Of a stretch of 39,971 nucleotides of DNA, positions 2,321 through 39,600 are shown piece after piece (the first letter of the stretch is position 1; the number at the start of each line of letters is the position of its first letter). The stretch comes from a virus (Duplodnaviria; Heunggongvirae; Uroviricota; Caudoviricetes). A program made the position numbers and the translations under genes. The notes beneath the pieces are model-generated. The model was not told the origin of the DNA and searched no databases. It was given only the letters and a program-made list of their open reading frames with translations. The stretch is taken from IMG/VR virus record IMGVR_UViG_2718218453_000003, positions 1 to 39,971 of that record; one strand, given 5' to 3'.

Positions 2321-4762
2321 TTAAAAATCAGCCTGACTCGGGATCAGTTTTTGCCAGATAGCTGAAACGTATTTTGCCTGGTAACGAGCGTCATCAAGTG
2401 CATTATGGCGCTCACCTTCGAATGGAATAGCCGTTCTGGCATCGAAGTCTATGGCTTTCCCCAGCTCAACGATTGTGCGTACATCGCGATCGTTGTAGTA
2501 ACGCCACGGGCAGGGGATCCCCTGCCGTTCGTATGAACGGCGCAAAATCGTGTTGTCGAAGTTGGCTCCATTTCCCCAGACCTGAACAAAAAATTCACCG
2601 GAGTTTTCGTCGATAAATTCCCGCAATTGTAACAGTGCATCATCTAACGGGATTTCATCGGTCATAATGGCAGATTGCGCTTCGCGTGATTGCTTAAGCC
2701 ACCATTTAATGGTGTCCCGATCAATGACTCCGCCAGCAGTTTCCAGATCGATAGTCTTACTAAATTCCGGTCCCATATCTCCGGTTTGCGGATCGAAAAA
2801 TATTGCACCTATTGAGATGATCGGGGCATCAGGATTTTTTCCCATGGTTTCAAGGTCGATCATTAGATGGTCACACGTCCTGCTGGTGGATGTGATTTCG
2901 TGATGACCATTCACCGTAATTAAGGGATCTGCCGTCTCGCCAGTTTTACTATCGCTGGCGTGGTCCTGAGCGCTGCCAGCATTCTCCTTGTGTGGATGTT
3001 CAGCGCCTTCCATTTCCTCCGGATCATTTTCCTGAACTTCAACCTGATTCTCTTCATCGAATGTTTTCTGGTATGTTGCGTCGCCCATCACCGCGCCACA
3101 ATCAGGGCAGTTGCCGCCACCGCTCTGACCGCAGGCGGTGCAGACTTTTTTCGGTTCCTGTTGCGCTACTGGTTCGGATTGTTTCGTTTCTGGCTCGTTT
3201 TGTAACGCATTTGGGCTGTTTTGTTCCGCTTTTTGGTCGTTCCGTTCCGATTCATGCTGGTTCTGGTTCACAGAATCGCGAGTCTGGATCCCCTTGACCC
3301 ATTTCGGATCATTAGGGTCGCTAATCCCCTCAACAAATTCACCACGCGATACAGCAAGTAACTTATCGGCGTCAGGCTGGCTGATATTGGCTGCCTGCAT
3401 AATTTTGTTTACTTCGTCAGCGGTGACTTTTACTTGGTTAGCGGAACTCACCTGCGACTGAGCATCCAGCGACTGCGCGTTCTGGCAATGTTCAGTTGTA
3501 TCCGGTTCCATTGTTTCAGTTGTTGCCTGTTCACCTGCCATTGCGTCAGATGGTTGTGGTTTTTCTTCTTCTGTTTCACGCTCAGTAACCACCTCGCGGT
3601 TAATTTCTTCCAGGATATCTTTTTCCGGCGTATGCCGGGCAGCTGTGAGAGTTTCCTTGCTGGGGTTCTCGTGATCAGTTTCCGTCAAATAGGCGTTGAT
3701 ATACCCCTGAAGGCGTCCCGGGTAGTGATAAAATTCAGGGTGTGCGCTTCGGATAAGTGCAAAAATAGCGGCGCGGGAATAGTCCAGAATACCCGGGGTT
3801 GCACGAAGTGCTGCGGACCATTCTTTGAACGGACTTTCTTTTTTCAGGACTACTTCTTTTGCGCGACGATAAACGCTGCCCGGAATTTCATAAATATTAA
3901 AATCCATCGGAAGTGTGGCTGCTGCAATCTCCACATCCAGTGTGTCGAGGGTGTGTACTAAATTCGGATTGCGATCGGTTTTGTTCCCACCGCCAGCATT
4001 AGCACCGGAAGCCGTGCGGGTGATGCGTGAAACACGATTTCCTTTCATCCACTCTTTTGTCAGCAGACCCCGATCAGTGTAGTGAGCGTCCAGGTATGCT
4101 TCGAAAAAAGCAGTTATTAGTCCCAGGTCTGAATTACCAGGATTAGGGAAAACTTTGTCAGTGTCACGAACCAGTTTGTGGAGGTCGCGAATCTCCAGCG
4201 AGTCGAGCAGACTGGTTTTATGCGAAATAGCCAGGGCAGTAACAGCCGGTAGTTCTTCAGCCCGTGCAATGTGTAATGCCTGGAGTTCGTCGCGTGAAAC
4301 GTGCGTTACTGGTTTTTCGCTGCCGTGTTGAGCAAGCCAACGAATGGGCAGTTCCTGACCGGAGACAGGTAGAAGCATGCTCTCCTCAATCTCAGTCATG
4401 TCTTCGCCGTTGATGTTGGTATTATCAGTGCTGGCTGATTTGTCCTGAACAGAGGGGGAAGGGCCGATAAATGTCATTGTGATGCCATCTTTCCCGCCTT
4501 TTTCATAGCGGTTGCAGAATTCAGTATCAAACACGCCTTCTGGCGGAAGGTCGTCAACAACGGGCAAATTGACGCGGACGGGTTTTTTAAAGTCGTCTTC
4601 ATCATAATCGTTGTCATCCATTGCGGTAATGCAGCGGGAGATTGCAACAGATAATTTTTTTGCTGTAGTCCAGTAAAAACCACCTTTAATTCCTAGGCGT
4701 TTTCTTACTTTGTCATTTTTTGCTTCGCAATATAGTGCAAATTCTTCTTTATCAGTGCTCAT
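2321..4762 (-). CDS. RecE-family exodeoxyribonuclease VIII-like protein (813 aa) with C-terminal DEDDh (DnaQ-like) 3'-5' exonuclease domain
   Basis: N-terminal region resembles recalled RecE N-terminus ([41 protein letters not shown]); C-terminal Exo I DLE (MIDLETMG), Exo II GNGANFD, Exo III HNALDDA; internal [16 protein letters not shown] zinc-ribbon-like motif. Confidence 0.8.
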
Positions 4763-4855
4763 TATTGATAAACCTCATCACAGATTTAAGGGTGAACAAA
4801 TCTCTGCCATTGCTGACATATAAGAATGAAACTGGATATTTATTACGGTGCTGTT

Positions 4856-5047
4856 TTAAAATCCTGCCGGGATTTCGTTATTATCCTGGTGAATAACTTT
4901 ATCGACCGGATAACAGTTGCCTGGAATTTTCTGTTCGGTTGCTGCTGCCATACATTCCTGCATTGTTCTGTGAACACTGACTGCAATATCAACTGGCTCT
5001 CCGGAAACAAGAAAAACCGTCAGAATAAGTGCAAATACTGGATTCAT
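4856..5047 (-). CDS. ydfD: YdfD-like small protein with N-terminal hydrophobic segment (63 aa)
   Basis: Start chosen at MNPVFALILTVFLVSG with AAGGA RBS; start overlaps dicB stop (ATGA); last gene of dicB-type operon; length matches recalled YdfD. Confidence 0.6.
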   Translation of the reverse strand: MNPVFALILTVFLVSGEPVDIAVSVHRTMQECMAAATEQKIPGNCYPVDKVIHQDNNEIPAGF

Positions 5048-5232
5048 TGTGCACATCCTTTTGGCATCAGACGTAAACGGGCCAGCATTGAAACAATGCA
5101 TACTTTATTTAATAACTCCCGTTCGTGTTTTCTTTTGTTAATGGCCTCTTCAGTAAATACAGGATTACTGATAGTGACACCAATTTCAAAACAACCTTCA
5201 GACGTATTAACGTTTGGTAATAACGTTTTCAT
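5044..5232 (-). CDS. dicB: Cell division inhibitor DicB (62 aa)
   Basis: MKTLLPNVNTSEGCFEIGVTISNPVFTEEAINKRKHERELLNKVCIVSMLARLRLMPKGCAQ matches recalled DicB; directly downstream of DicF. Confidence 0.8.
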   Translation of the reverse strand: MKTLLPNVNTSEGCFEIGVTISNPVFTEEAINKRKHERELLNKVCIVSMLARLRLMPKGCAQ

Positions 5233-5406
5233 TATCGCGCCCTCAACAATGAGTTTTGTGATGCGGTGCCTGGTGCCTCCAGGTGACGTTAACCAGTTAA
5301 CAATTAACGCCGGATACAGAGAATCCACCCATAACACTGTTTTTGGTTTTAACTGTTCCGCGTGCGCTTAGCCGCATTCACCGCATCACAAAATTCACTT
5401 TAAAAA

Positions 5407-5459
5407 GGGCGGCAGAGCAGTCACGGAGTAAAACTGATACCGCCAAACGTCACCAGAAA
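5407..5459 (-). ncRNA. dicF: DicF small RNA (ftsZ-targeting sRNA of the dicB operon)
   Basis: Minus-strand sequence TTTCTGGTGACGTTTGGCGGTATCAGTTTTACTCCGTGACTGCTCTGCCGCCC followed by TTTTT matches recalled 53-nt DicF; lies between ydfC-like and dicB. Confidence 0.8.
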
Positions 5460-7587: not shown

Positions 7588-8009
7588 AAATCAAGCATGA
7601 ACACATCCGCATGGCGATGAATGCCTGGGCGCATCCGGACGGCGAAAAAGTACCGGCTGCGAAAATTACCAAAGCGTATTTCGAGCTGGGAATGACGTTC
7701 CCGGAACTGTATGACGACAGCCATCCGGAAGCCCTGGCTCGCAATACCCAGAAAATTTTCCGCTGGGTAGAGAAAGACACCCCTGATGCAGTTGAAAAAA
7801 TTCAGGCGTTGTTACCAGCGATCGAAAAGGCAATGCCACCTTTGCTGGTGGCCAGAATGCGCAGCCACAGTTCAGCTTATTTTCGGGAGCTGGTGGAGAC
7901 GCGGGAGCGACTGGTGAGAGACGCTGATGATTTTGTCGCAGTGGCAATCGCCGGTTTCAATCAGATGAACCGTGGTGGCCCGGCAGGAAATGCTGTGGCA
8001 GTACATTGA
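7584..8009 (+). CDS. YdaT-like protein (141 aa), CII-position regulator
   Basis: MKIKHEHIRMAMNAWAHPDGEKVPAAKITKAYFELGMTFPELYDD resembles recalled Rac YdaT; ATGA overlap with cro-like stop. Confidence 0.7.
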   Translation: MKIKHEHIRMAMNAWAHPDGEKVPAAKITKAYFELGMTFPELYDDSHPEALARNTQKIFRWVEKDTPDAVEKIQALLPAIEKAMPPLLVARMRSHSSAYFRELVETRERLVRDADDFVAVAIAGFNQMNRGGPAGNAVAVH

Positions 8010-9428: not shown

Positions 9429-9802
9429 TGGTCTGGTGACTGGAAATATGTACCGAAAAAAGAGGATTGTAACGATAGGCCGAACTATGAAATTCAGGCC
9501 TTATTCACTGCCCCGCCAGTCCCGGTTACATCAGAAGAACTGGTTAAAGCTGTGCACTTTTATGAACAACTAAAACGCGAAAATCCACCAGCATCCGGAA
9601 ACCTGATTACAGATTCCCAGATAAGGCAATGAGCTACCTGGCGCAGAACGGGCTGATAAGTATGGGGAATGTTTTACGATGAATATTTAGACTAAAGAGT
9701 TTGTAACGCTATGTAAGTGATTTTTTCTGGTTTAGATATTTATATGTCCGGCCAAATTGAGGTGTGTTTAAATGTAATTGCACATTGATTGTAGGAGGAA
9801 TA

Positions 9803-9982
9803 ATGAAAAACGCATTGCAGTTTTTGTTTGTTGCGTTTTGGTTGTTCGTATCATGTATGCCCATCATCTTCACAGCAAGGTATATGGAAAAAGTTGATGT
9901 TTTGATATTAATATTTGGATATATAAATGCCCTTTTTTTAGGGGTGTTCATGGCGGTCATGTGCATTGAATACTGGCGGTAA
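9803..9982 (+). CDS. Small hydrophobic membrane protein (59 aa, two predicted TM segments) in AT-rich segment
   Basis: AGGAGG RBS 5 nt upstream of ATG; MKNALQFLFVAFWLFVSCMPIIFTARYMEKVDVLILIFGYINALFLGVFMAVMCIEYWR. Confidence 0.55.
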   Translation: MKNALQFLFVAFWLFVSCMPIIFTARYMEKVDVLILIFGYINALFLGVFMAVMCIEYWR

Positions 9983-10037
9983 ATACAGCGAACGCCATTG
10001 GTTTAGTTGGATATTTACTGTGCCGGACAAAAACGGT

Positions 10038-10065
10038 TTGCGGGGAAATCTTAGTTAAGTAGAAT
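10038..10065 (+). promoter_or_regulatory. Candidate hok mRNA promoter (-35 TTGCGG, 16-nt spacer, -10 TAGAAT)
   Basis: Hexamers read in sequence; predicted 5' end coincides with element complementary to the mRNA 3' end. Confidence 0.4.
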
Positions 10066-10124
10066 GACTGCGGGTGCTTGAGGCTATCTGTCTCAGGCAT
10101 GAACACCAAAGGCAGATAGAGAAA

Positions 10125-10204
10125 AGCCCCAGTTAACATTACGCGTCCTGCAAGACGCTTAACATTAATCTGAGGCTCAATCTATGAACGGCAAATCTAG
10201 GTTA
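10125..10204 (-). ncRNA. Putative Sok-like antisense RNA region (candidate promoter -35 TTGCCT 10227..10222, -10 TAACCT 10204..10199) overlapping the mok SD and start
   Basis: Promoter-like hexamers with 17-nt spacer antisense to the mok initiation region; boundaries not determined. Confidence 0.3.
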
Positions 10205-10396
10205 GCCTCTTACGTGCCGAAAGGCAAGGAGAAGCAGGCTATGAAGCAGCAAAAGGCGATGTTAATCGCCCTGATCGTCATCTGTTTAACCGTCATAGTG
10301 ACGGCACTGGTAACGAGGAAAGACCTCTGCGAGGTACGAATCCGAACCGGCCAGACGGAGGTCGCTGTCTTCACAGCTTACGAACCTGAGGAGTAA
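10184..10396 (+). CDS. mok: Mok-like reading frame (70 aa), in-frame N-terminal extension of hok
   Basis: ATG with GAGG RBS; same-frame arrangement as recalled mokC/hokC. Confidence 0.55.
   Translation: MNGKSRLASYVPKGKEKQAMKQQKAMLIALIVICLTVIVTALVTRKDLCEVRIRTGQTEVAVFTAYEPEE
10241..10396 (+). CDS. hok: Hok/Gef-family type I toxin (51 aa), closest to recalled HokD/RelF
   Basis: MKQQKAMLIALIVICLTVIVTALVTRKDLCEVRIRTGQTEVAVFTAYEPEE; TM helix plus conserved RKDLCEV...TGQTEVAVF core. Confidence 0.85.
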   Translation: MKQQKAMLIALIVICLTVIVTALVTRKDLCEVRIRTGQTEVAVFTAYEPEE

Positions 10397-12276: not shown

Positions 12277-13098
12277 ATGAAACTGGAAGATTTACCGAAA
12301 TACTACTCCCCAAAATCCCCTGGCCTGACCGATGCATCGGCCTCAACGTCAAAAGATGCGCTGAGTATCACTGATGTGATGGCCGCGCAGGGCATGACAC
12401 AGAATCGGGCTGAGATGGGTTTTTCTGCGTTCCTGGGGAAAATGGGCATCAGTATGAATGACAGGGCGCGGGCAACAGAATTACTGGCAGATTATGCACT
12501 CAGTCGGTGCGATCGTGTGGCTGCGTTGAGAAAACTTCCGGCAGAAATAAAACCGGTAGTGATGCGCATTATGGCTTCGTACGCTTTTGAGGATTATGCC
12601 CGCAGCGCAGCGAGTAAAAAGCAGTGCCCTTGTTGCTATGGGGAAAAATTTATTGAAAGCGTAGTTTTTACAAACAAGGTCCAGTATCCGGATGGTAAGC
12701 CGCCGGTATGGGCAAAGTGTACGAAAGGTGTGTATCCGTCTTACTGGGAAGAATGGAAAAAAGTCAGGGAGGTGGTAAAAGTTGCCTGTCCGGAGTGTGG
12801 CGGAAAGGGTGAGGTTTCCACCGCCTGTAAGGATTGCCGTGGGCGTGGTGTCGCCATTCATCGTGAAGAGTCGGTAAAACGTGGTATGCCTGTTATCAGA
12901 GACTGCCAGCGTTGTGGTGGTCGTGGCTATGAAAGACTACCATCAACGGAGGCATTTAATGCTATATGCGAGGTGACAAACCAGATAACACGCGCGTCAT
13001 GGGAAAAAACAGTTAAGAAATTCTATGATGCGCTGGTGACCCGGTTTGATATTGAAGAAGCATGGGCTGAGCGGCAGTTAAAAAAGGTAACTAGGTAA
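12277..13098 (+). CDS. Late-gene antitermination protein Q (273 aa) with Cys-rich zinc-finger repeats
   Basis: Position upstream of late promoter and tRNAs; CPCC, CPECGGKGE, CKDCRGRG, CQRCGGRG motifs. Confidence 0.75.
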   Translation: MKLEDLPKYYSPKSPGLTDASASTSKDALSITDVMAAQGMTQNRAEMGFSAFLGKMGISMNDRARATELLADYALSRCDRVAALRKLPAEIKPVVMRIMASYAFEDYARSAASKKQCPCCYGEKFIESVVFTNKVQYPDGKPPVWAKCTKGVYPSYWEEWKKVREVVKVACPECGGKGEVSTACKDCRGRGVAIHREESVKRGMPVIRDCQRCGGRGYERLPSTEAFNAICEVTNQITRASWEKTVKKFYDALVTRFDIEEAWAERQLKKVTR

Positions 13099-13103
13099 CA
13101 AGG

Positions 13104-13131
13104 TTGATTTTTCCGGAATCTGTGGTAAATT
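13104..13131 (+). promoter_or_regulatory. Candidate late promoter PR' (-35 TTGATT, 16-nt spacer, -10 TAAATT)
   Basis: Hexamers immediately downstream of Q stop. Confidence 0.5.
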
Positions 13132-13179
13132 CGTCATAACGATGGGCTTTTTATGCCTGACGTTAGAAGAGTTTCTACA

Positions 13180-13205
13180 ACCCGCCGCCGAGCGGGTTTT
13201 TTATT
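13180..13205 (+). terminator. Candidate tR' terminator (ACCCGC-CGCCGA-GCGGGT plus TTTTTTATT)
   Basis: Hairpin plus T-run about 50 nt downstream of the PR' -10. Confidence 0.6.
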
Positions 13206-13241
13206 GCGGAATTAATTACGGACCGTTATTATTCTGCTCCC

Positions 13242-13317
13242 GGCCCTTTAGCTCAGTGGTGAGAGCGAGCGACTCATAATCGCCAGGTCGCTGGTTCAAA
13301 TCCAGCAAGGGCCACCA
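13242..13317 (+). tRNA. tRNA with CAT anticodon, ileX/ileZ-like (tRNA-Ile2, formally Met by anticodon), 76 nt with CCA
   Basis: Cloverleaf checked by hand: acceptor GGCCCTT/AAGGGCC, D-stem GCTC/GAGC, T-arm GCTGG-TTCAAAT-CCAGC, anticodon loop CTCATAA. Confidence 0.85.
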
Positions 13318-13417
13318 TCACAAACCGCCATTAGCTTATCAGGAAGAGCAGACGACACGATAACAGGGTTGTTGGTGCGGGGGCGGGTCCCCGATGGCGG
13401 TCCATTATCGGTATTCA

Positions 13418-13491
13418 GCGTTGTTAGCTCAGCCGGACAGAGCAATTGCCTTCTAAGCAATCGGTCACTGGTTCGAATCCAGTACAGCGCG
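13418..13491 (+). tRNA. tRNA-Arg (anticodon TCT), 74 nt, no encoded CCA
   Basis: Cloverleaf checked by hand: acceptor GCGTTGT/ACAGCGC, anticodon stem ATTGC/GCAAT, loop CTTCTAA, T-arm ACTGG-TTCGAAT-CCAGT. Confidence 0.85.
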
Positions 13492-13631
13492 CTATATTCA
13501 TTCTTCCAGATTCCTTCCGGCAGAGCCTTATACTGAAATATACCTGGCTCAGGATATTGTTGAAAATATTTTATGTTTGTCAAAAATAAAAGTTCTGTTA
13601 AGTATTGATTGAGTGTTTGTTATACGGTCTA

Positions 13632-13958
13632 ATGGTTTTTTCAGCATTAAATATTTATCATTCATATGGTGTGGGTAGAGTGAATATTGATGAGGCGTCG
13701 GGGTGTTTCATCCTTAGGCAGCGTATTGATATAGTCAATGCAGGACGAGCAAAGGCCTTCAGCCGTTTGACAGTTTTGTTCTGTACTCCTGATCGTCTTT
13801 CGGGAAGAGACGTTATTATTCTGAATAGTGATGCTATACAGAGGGTTTGCGATGAGTTCATGGTTGCTAATTCAGAATTATTTGCTCTTGTTCAGGAGTA
13901 CAACAGAATAGCCAGTACCTGTGGTATGGATGAACTTCGGATTACTCATCTGGGGTAG
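13632..13958 (+). CDS. Hypothetical protein in AT-rich island (108 aa from first ATG; start uncertain, ORF track begins at TTG 13605)
   Basis: Long ORF with helical-looking C-terminus; no recognised family; an antisense ORF 13658..13861 also exists. Confidence 0.35.
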   Translation: MVFSALNIYHSYGVGRVNIDEASGCFILRQRIDIVNAGRAKAFSRLTVLFCTPDRLSGRDVIILNSDAIQRVCDEFMVANSELFALVQEYNRIASTCGMDELRITHLG

Positions 13959-14037
13959 ATACATATCTGGATTATCACTTGTTACGGTAAAAAGTGATTG
14001 CTTACTGTTTTTGTGAGTGGCATTGCAGCAGCCGGAT

Positions 14038-14124
14038 AATGTCAGTGCTGGCTGACGGTGTGCTGGTGGCGGGTGTGGTGGTTGTTGCTTTCCCGTTGCT
14101 GAAAAAGAAAACGCCAGACTGTTA
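14038..14124 (+). CDS. Candidate 28-aa hydrophobic peptide MSVLADGVLVAGVVVVAFPLLKKKTPDC
   Basis: Hand translation; hydrophobic core with polybasic tail; weak RBS; speculative. Confidence 0.2.
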
Positions 14125-14348
14125 GCCGGGTATCAGTTAGCGGGAGAAATTTTTAAATACTTCACAATTCAGGCGGTTGACTGTTGTCTGGTTTGCGGGG
14201 AGTTTGTTAAAAGAAACTGGCATGGTGAATCCCCCTGTGCGGAGGGGCAATCAGCGAGTAGGTATATGGGATAATCGCGAATTCAGGTGCTGGTACTGAA
14301 TTCACCGGGAGGCACCCGGCACCATGCAATGGCACATAGCGCCACTCT

Positions 14349-14380
14349 CCAGCCCCTCTCCGGAGGGGCTGTTTATATTG
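14349..14380 (+). terminator. Rho-independent terminator (CAGCCCCTC-TCCG-GAGGGGCTG plus TTTATATTGATTTT)
   Basis: 9-bp GC stem, 4-nt loop, T-rich tail. Confidence 0.6.
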
Positions 14381-14405
14381 ATTTTGTCAGATGTGAGTAA
14401 ACTCC

Positions 14406-14741
14406 TTATGGACTTTGTTGTTTTAGTCCATAAGGACATATTTGCAGAATGCAACGGTTATTAAAGCATTCATTCAATACGTTATCTGTATTTGTAGGGC
14501 ATTCCTGGCTGTTTTTGATTAAATTCCAGAATGTTTTATTGAATGGTACTACGTTGTAAATGGTTACAGGTAGCACTTTGTTATTGAGCATGATACCTGT
14601 GTGAGTCAGTGTAAATATACTTTCAGGAGGTAAGAAAGCATCCGATTGATACCAGATTATTAATTTTACTTTACTCCATATGACTGAAAAAGATATTCCG
14701 CATGATGGCTGGATAACTGTATCAATCACAATCCACTTCAT
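14406..14741 (-). CDS. Hypothetical protein (111 aa) in AT-rich island, convergent with the 13632 ORF
   Basis: AGGAA RBS 5 nt upstream of ATG; promoter-like TTTACA / TATACT upstream on minus strand; no recognised family. Confidence 0.55.
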
Positions 14742-15001
14742 TTAGTTTCCTTGTTTATGCCTTGCTGGTGATGTTCTGAAAAGTATAAATGATATTTTTG
14801 AATGTAAACCATAGAGCAGAATTATTTTTCTGATGTTGTTTATTGTTTATTTAAATGCAGGGTGGTTTATATCTCGTCTTGTAGTTTATCCATGCATATC
14901 TGCTTGATAATCAAGTTTTTATTTAAGGTATGGTTTTGTGTTTTTTCTGTATTACATGTCAGGTATTTTAAAGAATTATTTTTCAGATGGTGGAAAGAAC
15001 C

Positions 15002-15190
15002 ATGGCATTTAAACACTATGATGTTGTCAGGGCGGCGGCGCCGTCAGATCTTGCGGAAAAGCTGACACATAAACTGAAAGAGGGCTGGCAGCCGTTTGGT
15101 AGTCCGGTGGCCATAACCCCTTATACCCTGATGCAGGCGATTGCAGCAGAAGGTGATGTGGTGGTCAGTGGTGCAACTGAGCCGGAGTGA
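15002..15190 (+). CDS. DUF1737-like small protein (62 aa) typical of the slot upstream of lambdoid holins
   Basis: MAFKHYDVVRAAAPSDLAEKLTHKLKEGWQPFG; position immediately upstream of holin. Confidence 0.6.
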   Translation: MAFKHYDVVRAAAPSDLAEKLTHKLKEGWQPFGSPVAITPYTLMQAIAAEGDVVVSGATEPE

Positions 15191-15497
15191 TACTACGTCA
15201 TCGTACTGGCCCGGCATTCCAGGCCATAAAAGACGGTCTGGCAGTGAGACTAAATGCACTGACGCTGACGGATATTACCAAAAATGCAACGTATGGCGTT
15301 GAGATAGAAAGTCTGGTGCTGGAGATAAATACACCGGCATCATCATAAAAAGTGAGCCAGTCAAATGGAAGGTATCGTTAAACTCACCGGTAGTGTCAGT
15401 GGATCGTCTGAGACGCTTGCATGAGTTATCAGAGCCATCAGTAGTTAACTGGTGGCTTTTTTATTGTTGTCAGCTTCCGGATAACGGGAGACGGGGT

Positions 15498-17154: not shown

Positions 17155-17448
17155 TTATTGTGAGCAATACACACGCGCTTCCAGTGGAGTATAAATGCCT
17201 AAAGTAATAAAACCGAGAAATCCATTTACGAATGTTTGCTGGGTTTCTGTTTTAACAACATTTTCTGCGCCGCCACAAATTTTGGCTGCATCAACAGTTT
17301 TCTCCTGTCCAATTCCCGAAACGAAGAAATGATGGGTGATGGTTTCCTTTGGTGTTACTGCTGTCGGTTTGTTTCCAACAGTAAACGTCTGTTGAGCACA
17401 TCCTGTAATAAGCATTGCCAGAGCGGCAGAAAACAACATTTTTTTCAT
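17155..17448 (-). CDS. bor: Bor/Iss-family outer-membrane lipoprotein (97 aa)
   Basis: MKKMLFSAALAMLITGCAQQTFTV...KICGGAENVVKTETQQTFVNGFLGFITLGIYTPLEARVYCSQ matches recalled lambda Bor. Confidence 0.9.
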   Translation of the reverse strand: MKKMLFSAALAMLITGCAQQTFTVGNKPTAVTPKETITHHFFVSGIGQEKTVDAAKICGGAENVVKTETQQTFVNGFLGFITLGIYTPLEARVYCSQ

Positions 17449-36698: not shown

Positions 36699-39600
36699 AT
36701 GGCAGTAAAGATTTCAGGTGTACTGAAAGACGGCACAGGAAAACCGGTACAGAACTGCACAATCCAGCTGAAAGCAAAACGTAACAGTACCACGGTGGTG
36801 GTGAACACGCTGGCCTCAGAAAATCCGGATGAAGCCGGGCGTTACAGCATGGACGTTGAGTACGGGCAGTACAGCGTTATTCTGTTGGTGGAAGGATTCC
36901 CGCCGTCACATGCCGGGATCATCACCGTGTATGAAGATTCTCAACCCGGTACGCTGAATGATTTTCTCGGTGCCATGACGGAGGATGATGCCCGTCCGGA
37001 GGCACTGCGCCGTTTTGAACTGATGGTGGAAGAGGTGGCGCGTAACGCGTCCGTGGTGGCACAGAACACGGCAGTCGCGAAGAAGTCAGCCGGCGATGCC
37101 GGCACATCTGCCCGTGAGGCGGCAACCCATGCGACTGATGCTGCAGGCTCAGCACGCGCAGCCAGCACGTCAGCCGGACAGGCCGCTTCGTCGGCTCAGT
37201 CAGCGTCTTCCAGCGCAGGAACGGCATCAACAAAGGCTACTGAAGCATCAAAAAGTGCTGCCGCTGCAGAGTCCTCAAAAAGCGCGGCGGCTACCAGTGC
37301 CGGTGCGGCGAAAACGTCAGAAACGAATGCGGCAGCGTCACAAAAATCTGCAGCCACTTCTGCATCCACCGCGACCACGAAAGCGTCAGAAGCTGCCACC
37401 TCAGCCCGGGATGCGGCGGCCTCAAAAGAGGCAGCGAAATCATCAGAAACGAACGCATCATTAAGTGCCAGTAGTGCAGCTTCCTCGGCAACGGCGGCAG
37501 GAAATTCCGCGAAGGCCGCAAAAACGTCTGAGACGAATGCGGATAACAGCGCACAGGCGGCAGCAGACTCACAAACTGCATCGGCAAACTCCGCGACAGC
37601 AGCCAAAAAATCAGAAACCAACGCGAAAAATAGCGAGGCAGCAGCAAAGAGCAGCGAAACCAACGCTAAAGCCAGCGAAACTAATGCTAAATCCAGTGAA
37701 ACAAACGCGGCGAAATCTGCAGCGGACGCACTTAATTATCGCAACCAGGCGCAAGTAATTGTTGGCGATAATATCGGTCTTGGCTCAGCCCCGCGTGATT
37801 GTCCTGATATTTCCGGCAACCCATCAGGGTATATCGGATTTATGCGCATTATGAGTAATGCAAAAGGCTTTCCATCGATTGTATCCGGTGAAAGCAGTCT
37901 TACGGGGTTTATTAGTCAGGTAGATGGAACACCAGCGTATACAGGTGTATTTCAGGGATGGGCTACGCGCTCGCTTTATACTTATCGCTGGAATCCGACA
38001 ATAGGCCCGCAATGGACACGCCACGCTCGCAAAAATGAAGTGGACCGTCTTGACCAATGGAATAGCGAAACATGGTTATATAACCATGATAAATCCATGC
38101 GCCTGGGGTTAACCGGATCAACATGGGGGTGTTACAGCGACACACAAAAAAAATGGATACCGCTTGATGTTTCTCATGGTGGTACTGGTGCGGCAACTAT
38201 TGATGGTGCTAGAACAAATTTTGGCTTAGGTAGGAACAACAGCCCTCAACTTAACAGTCTATTTCTTGATAGATATAGTGATTCGACCAATACATACACA
38301 TCTAGTGGAATTCTCCATACAAGACTGTTAGCAACTGACAGCACTGTGCGTCTTGGTGCTGATATGTATGTTGAAACTTTATCAAATGAGCTAGGTCAAT
38401 TAACAATAAGGTTTACATACGATGGTTCAACTGGTGCTTCAAAATATCTAAACCTTAACTCAGAAGGTAATTTAATTGTAGATAGTGCGATACTGAAATC
38501 AACGGTTGAAAAACCTTTACAAATAAGGAGCGCTAACCCAGCAATAAGATTTAATGAAACAGATCGCCCGGCTAACACGCCTACTTATACTCTCATTGCT
38601 AATGCTGGCGACTGGTTTATTCAGAAACGCGATTATGATGATGCCGGAAGCGTTAGTAACGCAATTGCATATAATTTCGCAAACGACAGAATTGATGTGC
38701 AAAATCTTAAAGCGTCTGGGTTAATTACAGCTAACTCAGGAATCGCAACATTAACAGGTCATGACTGGAACGCTCAGCATACTGATAACGTCGACAAATT
38801 TAGACCAATCGCAGGCAGTACAAACGGCCCGGCAGGCTCTATGGTTCTTGGCGGCATTCATGTTCAATTTAGTAAAAATTATGCTGTGCAGTTCGGAGGC
38901 CGCAATTCCGGTTTTTGGGGAAGAACAATTGAAAATGGAACGACGCAGGAATGGAAGAAATTACTAACAGTAGACGATCTCAATTCATCTACCGATCTTG
39001 CTGTCAGGTCATTAACCACATCTAACCCGATAAAATCTGGCGGAGGGCGGATTGATGTCCTTGGAAGCACGTCAGACTATAGCAAAATGGATTGCTTTGT
39101 ACGTGGGTTTGATAGCACCGGTAATTCTCTCGCGTGGGCGTTGGGTTCATCAGTCGGCGTAAGTAAGATGCTGTCGCTAAAAAATTTCTTTAGCGGAGCT
39201 GAGATACTGTTAAATGGTAATGACGGCGCGGTTCAACTCAAAACAGGTGCTGTTAACGGGGCTACAGCGCAGGCGCTCACTATCAACAGGAATGAGGTTA
39301 ACTCAACTGTTGATTTAACCCTTACAAAACAATCAGGGACTGGCAATCGTTTTGTTTTACAGAACTCAGGTAATGCAGAACTACCGTTTTCTGTCAGGGT
39401 GTGGGGTTCCAGTACTCGACAAAACGTTTTTGAGGTTGGAACGTCTGCTGCGTATCTGTTTTATGCGCAAAAAACGTCAGCAGGCCAGTTGTTTGATGTA
39501 AATGGCGCTATTAATTGCACAACGCTGAATCAGTCATCAGACCGCGACCTTAAAGACGATATTCTCGTTATCAGCGACGCGACGAAAGCAATCCGTAAAA

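Follow-up and report, generated by a model that had tools for sequence, protein, structure and literature searches.

In the uropathogenic E. coli (UPEC) strain CFT073, the prophage gene iraL (c1429) codes for an anti-adaptor of RssB which stabilises RpoS, as established by two-hybrid and pulldown experiments and by assays of RpoS stability (PMC4045071). The gene is transcribed in CFT073 lysogens and regulated by temperature and Fur, and its locus was described by Hryckowian et al. (2014, mBio; PMC4045071). It is part of a prophage at potB, in which Q, the tRNAs, ORF1, a DUF3927 ORF, STnc100, iraL (on the minus strand), the DUF1737 gene and the holin gene follow each other in this order. IraM from the e14 prophage of E. 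coli K-12 and RssC of Salmonella belong to the same family (NF007393) and share with IraL both the target, RssB, and the outcome, stabilisation of RpoS. IraM, which responds to Mg2+ starvation, makes contacts with both domains of RssB (PMC4045071; PMC10844676), and the RssB-IraM structure is available as PDB 8twd (PMC10844676).

Two further systems are related to parts of the locus. In Stx2 phages, an STnc100 element (EcOnc27/sRNA103) is located 75 nt downstream of stx2 (PMC12370729), that is, 3' of the cargo and upstream of the lysis genes. Phage P1 and the Stx-like phage JLK-2012 contain tciA-tciB(-tciC) clusters coding for a TerB-family protein and a DUF3927 protein, the names TciA and TciB having been assigned by homology only (P1 annotation).

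Context and composition of the cargo island

The stretch of DNA analysed here (39,971 nt, in the following the window) represents a lambda-like prophage, whose late operon is arranged in the order Q, pR'/tR', tRNAs, cargo and DUF1737-holin-lysozyme-Rz. The Q gene (12277-13098; PF03589) is followed by a tR'-like terminator detected by the terminator scan (13179-13198), and a profile search identified the DUF1737, holin and lysozyme genes as downstream neighbours of the cargo island. A first-pass annotation, made from the sequence alone, had described this island as separately acquired, AT-rich cargo of unassigned genes. Positions 13200-15300 proved to be colinear with the potB prophage of CFT073, with 97.8% nucleotide identity over 2.1 kb; by this sequence comparison, the island is essentially the published iraL locus of CFT073 and already known. 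CFT073 differs in containing an IS200 element between Q and the tRNAs, which the window lacks, and in an intact middle tRNA-Arg, whereas the one beside the island is degenerate; moreover, the prophage of the window adjoins a tRNA-Ser(CGA) gene instead of potB. Two Rfam matches in this region were dismissed as being below the gathering score, one to Trp_leader at 13099-13205, which merely reflects the tR'-like terminator, and one to Plastid-ycf2 over a tRNA.

The low GC content noted before was recovered in the leader between tRNA-Arg(TCT) and ORF1 (13493..13679, plus strand; 0.31), over iraL (0.34) and at 14742-14986 (about 0.28), compared to a mean of 0.50 for the window (sd 0.057, 300-nt windows), and the iraL block contains the lowest-GC 300-nt windows of the entire 40 kb. 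The description as AT-rich does not extend to the sRNA element between them, which shows a GC content of 0.55. Only weak promoter-like matches were found in the leader, e.g., TTGAAA-16-AAAAAT at 13560-13587, and the promoter scan yielded 6 matches versus 4.8 expected from shuffled sequences. Because this corresponds to the background, we claim no promoter for ORF1 or STnc100; the scan did not find a convincing one for ORF1, tciB' or STnc100.

The proposed separate acquisition of the segment flanked by the Q/tRNA module and the DUF1737-holin cassette was upheld, and the island is AT-rich cargo of the lysogenic-conversion type. We consider it highly probable that it represents a mosaic "moron" island in the late-operon cargo slot of a lambdoid prophage, corresponding to the iraL locus of CFT073, with iraL, STnc100, ORF1 and tciB' in the roles proposed below. 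The terms "unassigned" and "undescribed" had to be given up, since IraL, STnc100 (RF02076) and DUF3927/TciB are recognised and the CFT073 locus has been published; the minor residual left over without a function is ORF1 only.

The iraL gene and its promoter

The minus-strand ORF at 14406..14741 (111 aa) is present as predicted, but it does not lack a recognisable family, as had been stated: it codes for IraL, which belongs to the IraM/IraL/RssC family of RssB anti-adaptors. The protein matches NCBIfam NF007393 with 162 bits (cut-off 121; E 4.7e-48; residues 1-110), is assigned to phrog_4407, and is identical to CFT073 IraL at 109 of 111 positions (98%), the differences being V25I and I98T. The match to K-12 IraM (PDB 8twd; E 8.7e-32) corresponds to about 70% identity over residues 1-78 and about 59% overall. 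Hryckowian et al. defined iraL by a coding region at least 95% identical to that of CFT073, with promoter and upstream region also being conserved; with 99% identity to CFT073 over promoter, UTR and coding sequence, including 260 nt upstream, the gene of the window is an iraL by this definition.

The 5'UTR and the sigma-70 promoter of iraL extend over 14742..14808 (minus strand). The 5'-RACE sequence reported for the iraL mRNA (PMC4045071) agrees with the minus strand at 14743-14774 in 31 of 32 positions, and the mRNA start corresponds to position 14774. The -10 element TATACT (14782-14787) ends 7 nt upstream of this mapped start, which bears out the promoter proposed by the first-pass annotation; the -35-like element TTTACA (14803-14808) is located another 15 nt upstream, and the ATG start codon follows an AGGAA ribosome-binding site. 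Between the promoter and the DUF1737 gene lies an extremely AT-rich spacer (14809..14986; GC about 0.28), a conserved sequence corresponding to the "iraL upstream regulatory region" of CFT073.

Because iraL is oriented opposite to the late genes and is driven by a sigma-70 promoter of its own, its transcription in the lysogen should not depend on Q. Its product would bind to RssB's N-terminal domain and block the delivery of sigma-S to ClpXP, leading to elevated RpoS levels in growing cells. From the 98% identical CFT073 protein, we infer a host-physiology (lysogenic-conversion) function of IraL for this prophage, its target and effect being assigned by homology. The value of the analysis lies mainly in filing the island correctly, as a lysogenic-conversion locus which retunes the general stress response of the host via IraL, RssB and RpoS.

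The STnc100 element

The GC-rich structured stretch between the convergent ORFs is an STnc100-family prophage sRNA of about 190 nt with an intrinsic terminator (14191..14380, plus strand; Rfam RF02076), i.e., a member of the multicopy prophage sRNA family which also flanks stx2. It was recognised by cmscan with 131.4 bits (gathering score 47; E 9e-30) over the full length of the model (positions 1-206), and both published STnc_100 qPCR primer sequences (PMC12370729) occur in the window. All the structures noted in the first pass, i.e., two hairpins (14231-14246, 14278-14302) and the terminator (14349-14380), correspond to consensus helices of the family. In agreement with this, the minimum free energy fold (-75.1 kcal/mol; z = -2.6 versus shuffles) reproduced the Rfam helices, and the terminator scan reported a stem at 14350-14371 followed by a T-run. 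The STnc100 element of Stx2 phages contains the same hairpins and terminator and occupies the same place, but follows stx2AB, whereas ORF1 and tciB' are located upstream of the element in the window; the slot had been correctly equated with that of stxAB in Stx phages.

Among 5426 E. coli genomes, 2860 were found to contain STnc100, at 7867 places in total; the element also occurs in tandem arrays. The cargo upstream of it varies between prophages and consists of stx2AB, tciAB, a tolA-like gene or ORF1, while iraL is located on its other side in the window. Similarity to other phages breaks off inside the element: that to mEp460 ends at 14328, that to JLK-2012 covers 14026-14327, and that to vB_EcoS-733R4 starts at 14162. 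Because STnc100 is multicopy and conserved, it appears to serve as a homology patch where phages may swap cargo modules; this proposal is based on a handful of breakpoints, and those in the three phages together with the varied cargo are consistent with a recombination joint for moron exchange.

We infer that STnc100 acts in the lysogen both as a trans-acting sRNA and as a terminator for transcripts of the upstream cargo. Alternatively, it may be mainly a cis-acting element, i.e., a Q-sensitive terminator or insulator combined with a recombination patch. The strong terminator closing the element, its invariable place at the cargo unit's 3' end, the tandem arrays and the internal breakpoints would all fit such a role, and no validated STnc100 target is reported in PMC12370729, PMC12711010 or a preprint of the Storz lab. 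On the other hand, paralogues accumulate as discrete RNAs, as seen from 11 expressed copies in EDL933, one of which was confirmed by Northern blotting (PMC5331693). STnc100 also overlaps with EcOnc27/sRNA103, an Hfq-bound sRNA located downstream of stx2B in EHEC, whose overexpression altered the transcript levels of fimZ and espA (PMC12711010), and the Storz-lab preprint treats STnc100 as an sRNA which acts by base pairing and is related to PasD. With this literature on expression and Hfq binding, which covers the paralogues of EDL933 and Sakai, we regard a mainly cis-acting element as improbable and retain the dual role in trans and as a terminator.

ORF1, tciB' and the toxin or defence question

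The plus-strand ORF first reported at 13632..13958 represents a real gene without a recognised function, as proposed, but its start had to be corrected. Its frame is open to 13958 from either 13605 or 13632, yet three divergent homologues share the start GTGAATATTGATGA and contain in-frame stop codons upstream of it. Because the homologues start at the equivalent of GTG 13680, we rejected the longer versions starting with ATG at 13632 or TTG at 13605 and define ORF1 as a conserved 92-aa protein (13680..13958, plus strand). It is already catalogued as phrog_2873 (E 9.4e-58, residues 1-92 on profile positions 17-108 of 108; the 16 extra positions represent the non-conserved upstream extension) and as "hypothetical protein" in GenBank. 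The homologues are of the same length and share 63-64% amino acid identity, and dN/dS amounts to 0.19-0.32 in the frame of ORF1, compared to values of about 1 in the two remaining frames, at a dS between clades of about 1. By these substitution patterns, ORF1 is a functional gene under purifying selection.

Of 5426 complete E. coli genomes, 1312 (ca. 24%) contain ORF1. A library of 1.84 billion proteins contained just 19 representatives of its homologues, the distant ones being 91-95 aa long. A genome scan for divergent homologues returned one locus, by which one of the distant homologues was traced to Citrobacter braakii, and mEp460_ev081 was the sole tblastn match among 50,697 phage records. 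PGAP leaves ORF1 unannotated in near-identical genomes, and it is therefore missing from transcriptomics and proteomics tables based on RefSeq; the CFT073 counterpart, c1428, does not appear in that strain's temperature RNA-seq table, and we found no mention of it in the CFT073 literature. Neither this omission nor the idea of STnc100 as a recombination joint alters current understanding. ORF1 does not match any family in Pfam, NCBIfam or PADLOC, and single-sequence and profile searches against PDB sequences returned nothing informative. Its AlphaFold2 model (pLDDT 85.5; helices 3-35 and 50-81) predicts a cytoplasmic antiparallel helical hairpin, for which a fold search yielded only generic coiled-coil matches.

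The 28-aa hydrophobic peptide suggested at 14038..14124 does exist, but only as the C-terminal part of a 43-aa ORF at 13994..14125 (plus strand). This ORF codes for a small membrane protein of the DUF3927 family (PF13064; 95.6 bits, gathering threshold 25; E 1.7e-27; residues 2-43) and belongs to phrog_1470, "TciB-like" (E 7.8e-13). Alignment with TciB of E. coli C311, Citrobacter and JLK-2012 revealed a 5'-truncated gene, here called tciB', whose product lacks the first hydrophobic segment and contains MIAYCFCEWHC in its place. It is 67% identical to JLK-2012 TciB over the shared part, and nucleotide similarity to JLK-2012 begins at 14026. Because the gap between the ORF1 stop and the start of tciB' amounts to just 35 nt, tciA is missing here; the full TciB architecture with two hydrophobic segments and an adjoining TerB-family gene, as in P1, JLK-2012 and Citrobacter, was not encountered. 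The order ORF1-tciA-tciB-holin occurs in Citrobacter braakii and E. coli C311, which represent 2 of the 5 contexts examined; ORF1 is found without tciA in ETEC4075, OkiPb01694 and the window. Thus, ORF1 may ancestrally have been the first gene of an ORF1-tciA(TerB)-tciB(DUF3927) module for membrane stress or exclusion, and tciB' would be a truncated remnant of this module which may no longer be functional. We also considered whether ORF1 is TciC of P1 and rejected this, since TciC consists of 35 aa and no tblastn match to ORF1 was obtained in P1.

As a tentative best guess, ORF1 would be a protein-binding hairpin derived from the first gene of such a module. The more specific proposal that it is a lysogen-expressed gene missed by PGAP, and either still the first part of an ORF1-TerB(TciA)-DUF3927(TciB) superinfection-exclusion or envelope-stress module or a stand-alone hairpin which modulates a host factor as IraL does with RssB, appears unlikely. 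We also regard as unlikely the view that ORF1 and tciB' are decayed leftovers of an older cargo module, so that only iraL and perhaps STnc100 matter. The loss of tciA and of the 5' end of tciB, the degenerate tRNA-Arg nearby, the lack of a clear promoter in the scan and the missing PGAP call are all in line with decay, as are the GTG start of ORF1 and its weak Shine-Dalgarno sequence (GGGTAGA, compared to AGGAG in ETEC4075). The 92-codon frame is intact, however, and its selection across clades, the distant homologues and its presence in so many genomes argue against decay; this evidence supports a function of ORF1, but not of tciB'. We therefore keep to ORF1 as a functional gene accompanied by a remnant.

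The island had also been put forward as a candidate for an undescribed toxin, defence or lysogenic-conversion module. The last of these was correct in that iraL is a lysogenic-conversion gene with its own promoter, while no toxin or defence family was matched. A reading in which the island, or at least ORF1 and the small membrane peptide, forms a so far undescribed module with a toxin, anti-phage defence or exclusion role would draw on the conservation of ORF1 under purifying selection without an assigned function, on its position in relatives, where a TerB-family protein and DUF3927 are encoded directly downstream of it, and on the location in a typical moron and defence hotspot. The ter cluster of R478 is the classic link of TerB clusters to phage inhibition and to resistance against colicins and tellurite. 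Such a link of TerB-domain clusters is also stated in a P1 annotation note. However, the proposed PADLOC search did not return any defence family (PADLOC-DB v2; no match at E <= 0.1 for ORF1, tciB' or IraL), stxAB is not present in the slot between the tRNAs and STnc100, and neither ORF1 nor tciB' matched a toxin-related Pfam or NCBIfam family. Furthermore, of the four elements, iraL and STnc100 are already known and have no relation to toxins or defence, the putative module is disrupted in the window by the deletion of tciA and the truncation of tciB, and ORF1 is modelled as a plain soluble hairpin with no enzymatic or pore-forming signature. Such a module therefore seems very improbable, and we maintain the assignment as a lysogenic-conversion island. 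As a minor observation, the DUF3927 ORF adjoins phage tRNA genes in the window, as it does in P1 and JLK-2012.

Composition and setting of the island

The AT-rich stretch at 13500-14990, which the first-pass annotation had put forward as a candidate for an undescribed toxin, defence or lysogenic-conversion module, is already known and consists of the published iraL locus, a copy of the STnc100 sRNA family and a decayed tciB, leaving that proposal unsupported. The only item without a known role is ORF1, a 92-aa protein that is conserved, mostly left without annotation and predicted to form a helical hairpin. The window represents a lambdoid prophage of E. coli, in which the island is preceded by the gene for the Q antiterminator (12277-13098; PF03589, E 6e-55), a tR'-like terminator detected by a terminator scan (13179-13198), a tRNA gene with a CAT anticodon named tRNA-Ile by PGAP (13242-13317) and a tRNA-Arg-TCT gene (13418-13492). 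It is followed by a DUF1737 gene and the genes for a class II holin, a lysozyme and Rz. The reading of the island as cargo in the slot used by stx was right. In Stx2 phages, STnc100 is located 75 nt downstream of stx2 (PMC12370729).

The AT-richness was confirmed by GC contents of 0.31 at 13493-13679, 0.34 across the iraL ORF and 0.28 at 14742-14986, compared to a window mean of 0.50 (sd 0.057, 300-nt windows), and the lowest-GC windows of the entire 40 kb lie within the iraL block. Further patches below 0.42 were found at 4501-5400, 9451-10100 and 38151-38800, which may represent more moron or accessory insertions. A second AT-rich moron, the iss/bor serum-survival lipoprotein gene (17155-17448, minus strand, GC about 0.39-0.42), is located just past Rz.

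Further features were observed outside the island. The Q protein gave sub-threshold matches to a DnaJ-type CXXCXGXG zinc finger (PF00684, E 2e-6, 28.4 bits vs. a gathering score of 32.7), together with an anti-TRAP-like hit. The segment at 13325-13401 is a degenerate counterpart of the middle tRNA-Arg in the Ile-Arg-Arg trio of the UPEC strain CFT073; its centre is scrambled, both gene ends can still be aligned to CFT073, and it was not called by ARAGORN, Rfam or PGAP. PGAP flagged the DUF1737 gene (within 15002-15348) as truncated with a missing C-terminus, and a 53-aa ORF follows directly (15187-15348), so the lysis cassette may begin with a gene that has been disrupted or split. Rfam matches to sok (10072-10246, with hokD annotated in the identical genome) and to the DicF sRNA (5407-5458, minus strand) fit a Qin/DLP12-like early region, where the CFT073 neighbours are dicB and ydfABC.

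The iraL gene and STnc100

The predicted convergent minus-strand ORF (14406-14741) is present and, judged by its sequence, is iraL, coding for an RssB anti-adaptor. Its product scored 162 bits against NCBIfam NF007393 'anti-adapter protein IraM' (cut-off 121), matched the solved K-12 IraM chain 8twd_A (E 8.7e-32) and is identical in 109 of 111 amino acids to C_RS06710 (c1429, IraL) of CFT073. The coding sequence, UTR and upstream region (620 nt) share 99% identity with CFT073, whose potB prophage has the same gene order as the island. The iraL transcript's 5' end was mapped by RACE to ACATCACCAGCAAGGCATAAACAAGGAAACCA (Hryckowian et al., PMC4045071), a sequence with a single match in the window (14743-14774, minus strand, one mismatch). 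Therefore, the promoter-like TATACT noticed earlier ends 7 nt before the mapped start, with the accompanying TTTACA 15 nt further upstream. In CFT073, IraL binds RssB's N-terminal domain and stabilises sigma-S in log phase (PMC4045071); iraL is transcribed in lysogens of this strain and responds to temperature upshift and Fur loss. Among 5426 complete E. coli genomes, 1446 carry the gene together with its promoter.

The GC-rich structured stretch with its terminator (14350-14380) was recovered as a full-length cmscan match to RF02076 (STnc100) at 14191-14380 (131.4 bits vs. a gathering score of 47, E 9e-30). Both hairpins and the terminator correspond to helices of the consensus structure, and the same helices appear in the MFE fold (-75.1 kcal/mol, z = -2.6). 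Strain EDL933 expresses 11 STnc100 copies, one of them Northern-confirmed (PMC5331693), overlap with the Hfq-bound EcOnc27/sRNA103 is seen for the copy that follows stx2B (PMC12711010), and a 2026 preprint relates STnc100 to PasD. Of the 5426 genomes, 2860 contain the segment, at 7867 sites in total and up to 12 per genome. In near-identical genomes, PGAP places a partial pseudogene for a 'hypothetical protein' antisense to it (about 14207-14335, minus strand), which recurs in STnc100-bearing records and is almost certainly an annotation artefact, a spurious ORF on a structured RNA. STnc100 and iraL converge (14349-14406), with about 25 nt between the sRNA end and the iraL stop codon. Because the hairpin common to both ends has its U-tract solely on the plus strand, iraL transcripts may run into STnc100 antisense.

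The tciB remnant and mosaic structure

The small hydrophobic ORF proposed earlier exists, but it ends at 14125 as part of a 43-aa ORF (13994-14125) that matches Pfam DUF3927 (95.6 bits) and the 'TciB-like' phrog_1470, and it is a truncated, decayed TciB. Full-length TciB of phage JLK-2012, E. coli C311 and Citrobacter braakii contains an extra N-terminal hydrophobic segment and is preceded by the TerB-family gene tciA, whereas in the window the N-terminus is replaced and there is no space for tciA; nucleotide similarity to JLK-2012 starts only at 14026. The Tci names were assigned in the P1 annotation 'by homology' only.

The similarity of other phages to the island starts or stops within STnc100: it covers 13494-14328 in mEp460, which continues with a tolA-like gene, 14026-14327 in JLK-2012, and 14162-14990 in vB_EcoS-733R4 and relatives. 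The entire island is present at a coverage of at least 80% in 863 genomes. From these few breakpoints, STnc100 may serve as a conserved joint for the exchange of cargo modules, and it would act as a terminator closing upstream cargo transcripts in the lysogen.

ORF1

The plus-strand ORF ending at 13958 was also found. Copies with 72-76% nucleotide identity in other prophages encode 92-aa proteins (63-64% identical) with the common start GTGAATATTGATGA and a common end position; differences are enriched at third codon positions, dN/dS is 0.19-0.32 in frame vs. about 1 in the other two frames, and the homologues contain stop codons in the upstream extension of the frame. The common ends, dN/dS values and upstream stops therefore define the gene as 13680-13958. 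By this conservation pattern, ORF1 is a real gene, with no function assigned by any match. It has no PGAP annotation in the RefSeq record of CFT073 or in other 98-100% identical genomes, so RefSeq-based expression tables lack it; the supplement of the CFT073 temperature RNA-seq study has no entry between c1427 and c1429.

ORF1 matched phrog_2873, a family of unknown function (E 9e-58), and no Pfam, NCBIfam or PADLOC model. The family is small, with 19 representatives among 1.84 billion proteins, and its members are labelled 'hypothetical protein' everywhere. ORF1 is contained in 1312 of the 5426 genomes. Among 50,697 phage records, mEp460_ev081 is the sole carrier. The AF2 model (pLDDT 85.5) shows two long helices in an antiparallel hairpin tipped by a short beta turn, for which fold searches returned generic coiled-coil hairpins only.

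C. braakii and E. coli C311 share the gene order ORF1, tciA, tciB and holin, ETEC4075 carries ORF1 alone, and in the OkiPb clade ORF1 has an AraC-family regulator gene upstream and four tandem STnc100 copies downstream. A link of ORF1 to the TerB/DUF3927 module is therefore suggested by these contexts but does not hold in all of them. The E. coli OkiPb01694 region L003 contains five STnc100 copies in one prophage region (1167-1379 and 3139-4118 of L003), four of them head-to-tail immediately behind the ORF1 homologue and upstream of a SASA/NanS-type esterase gene.
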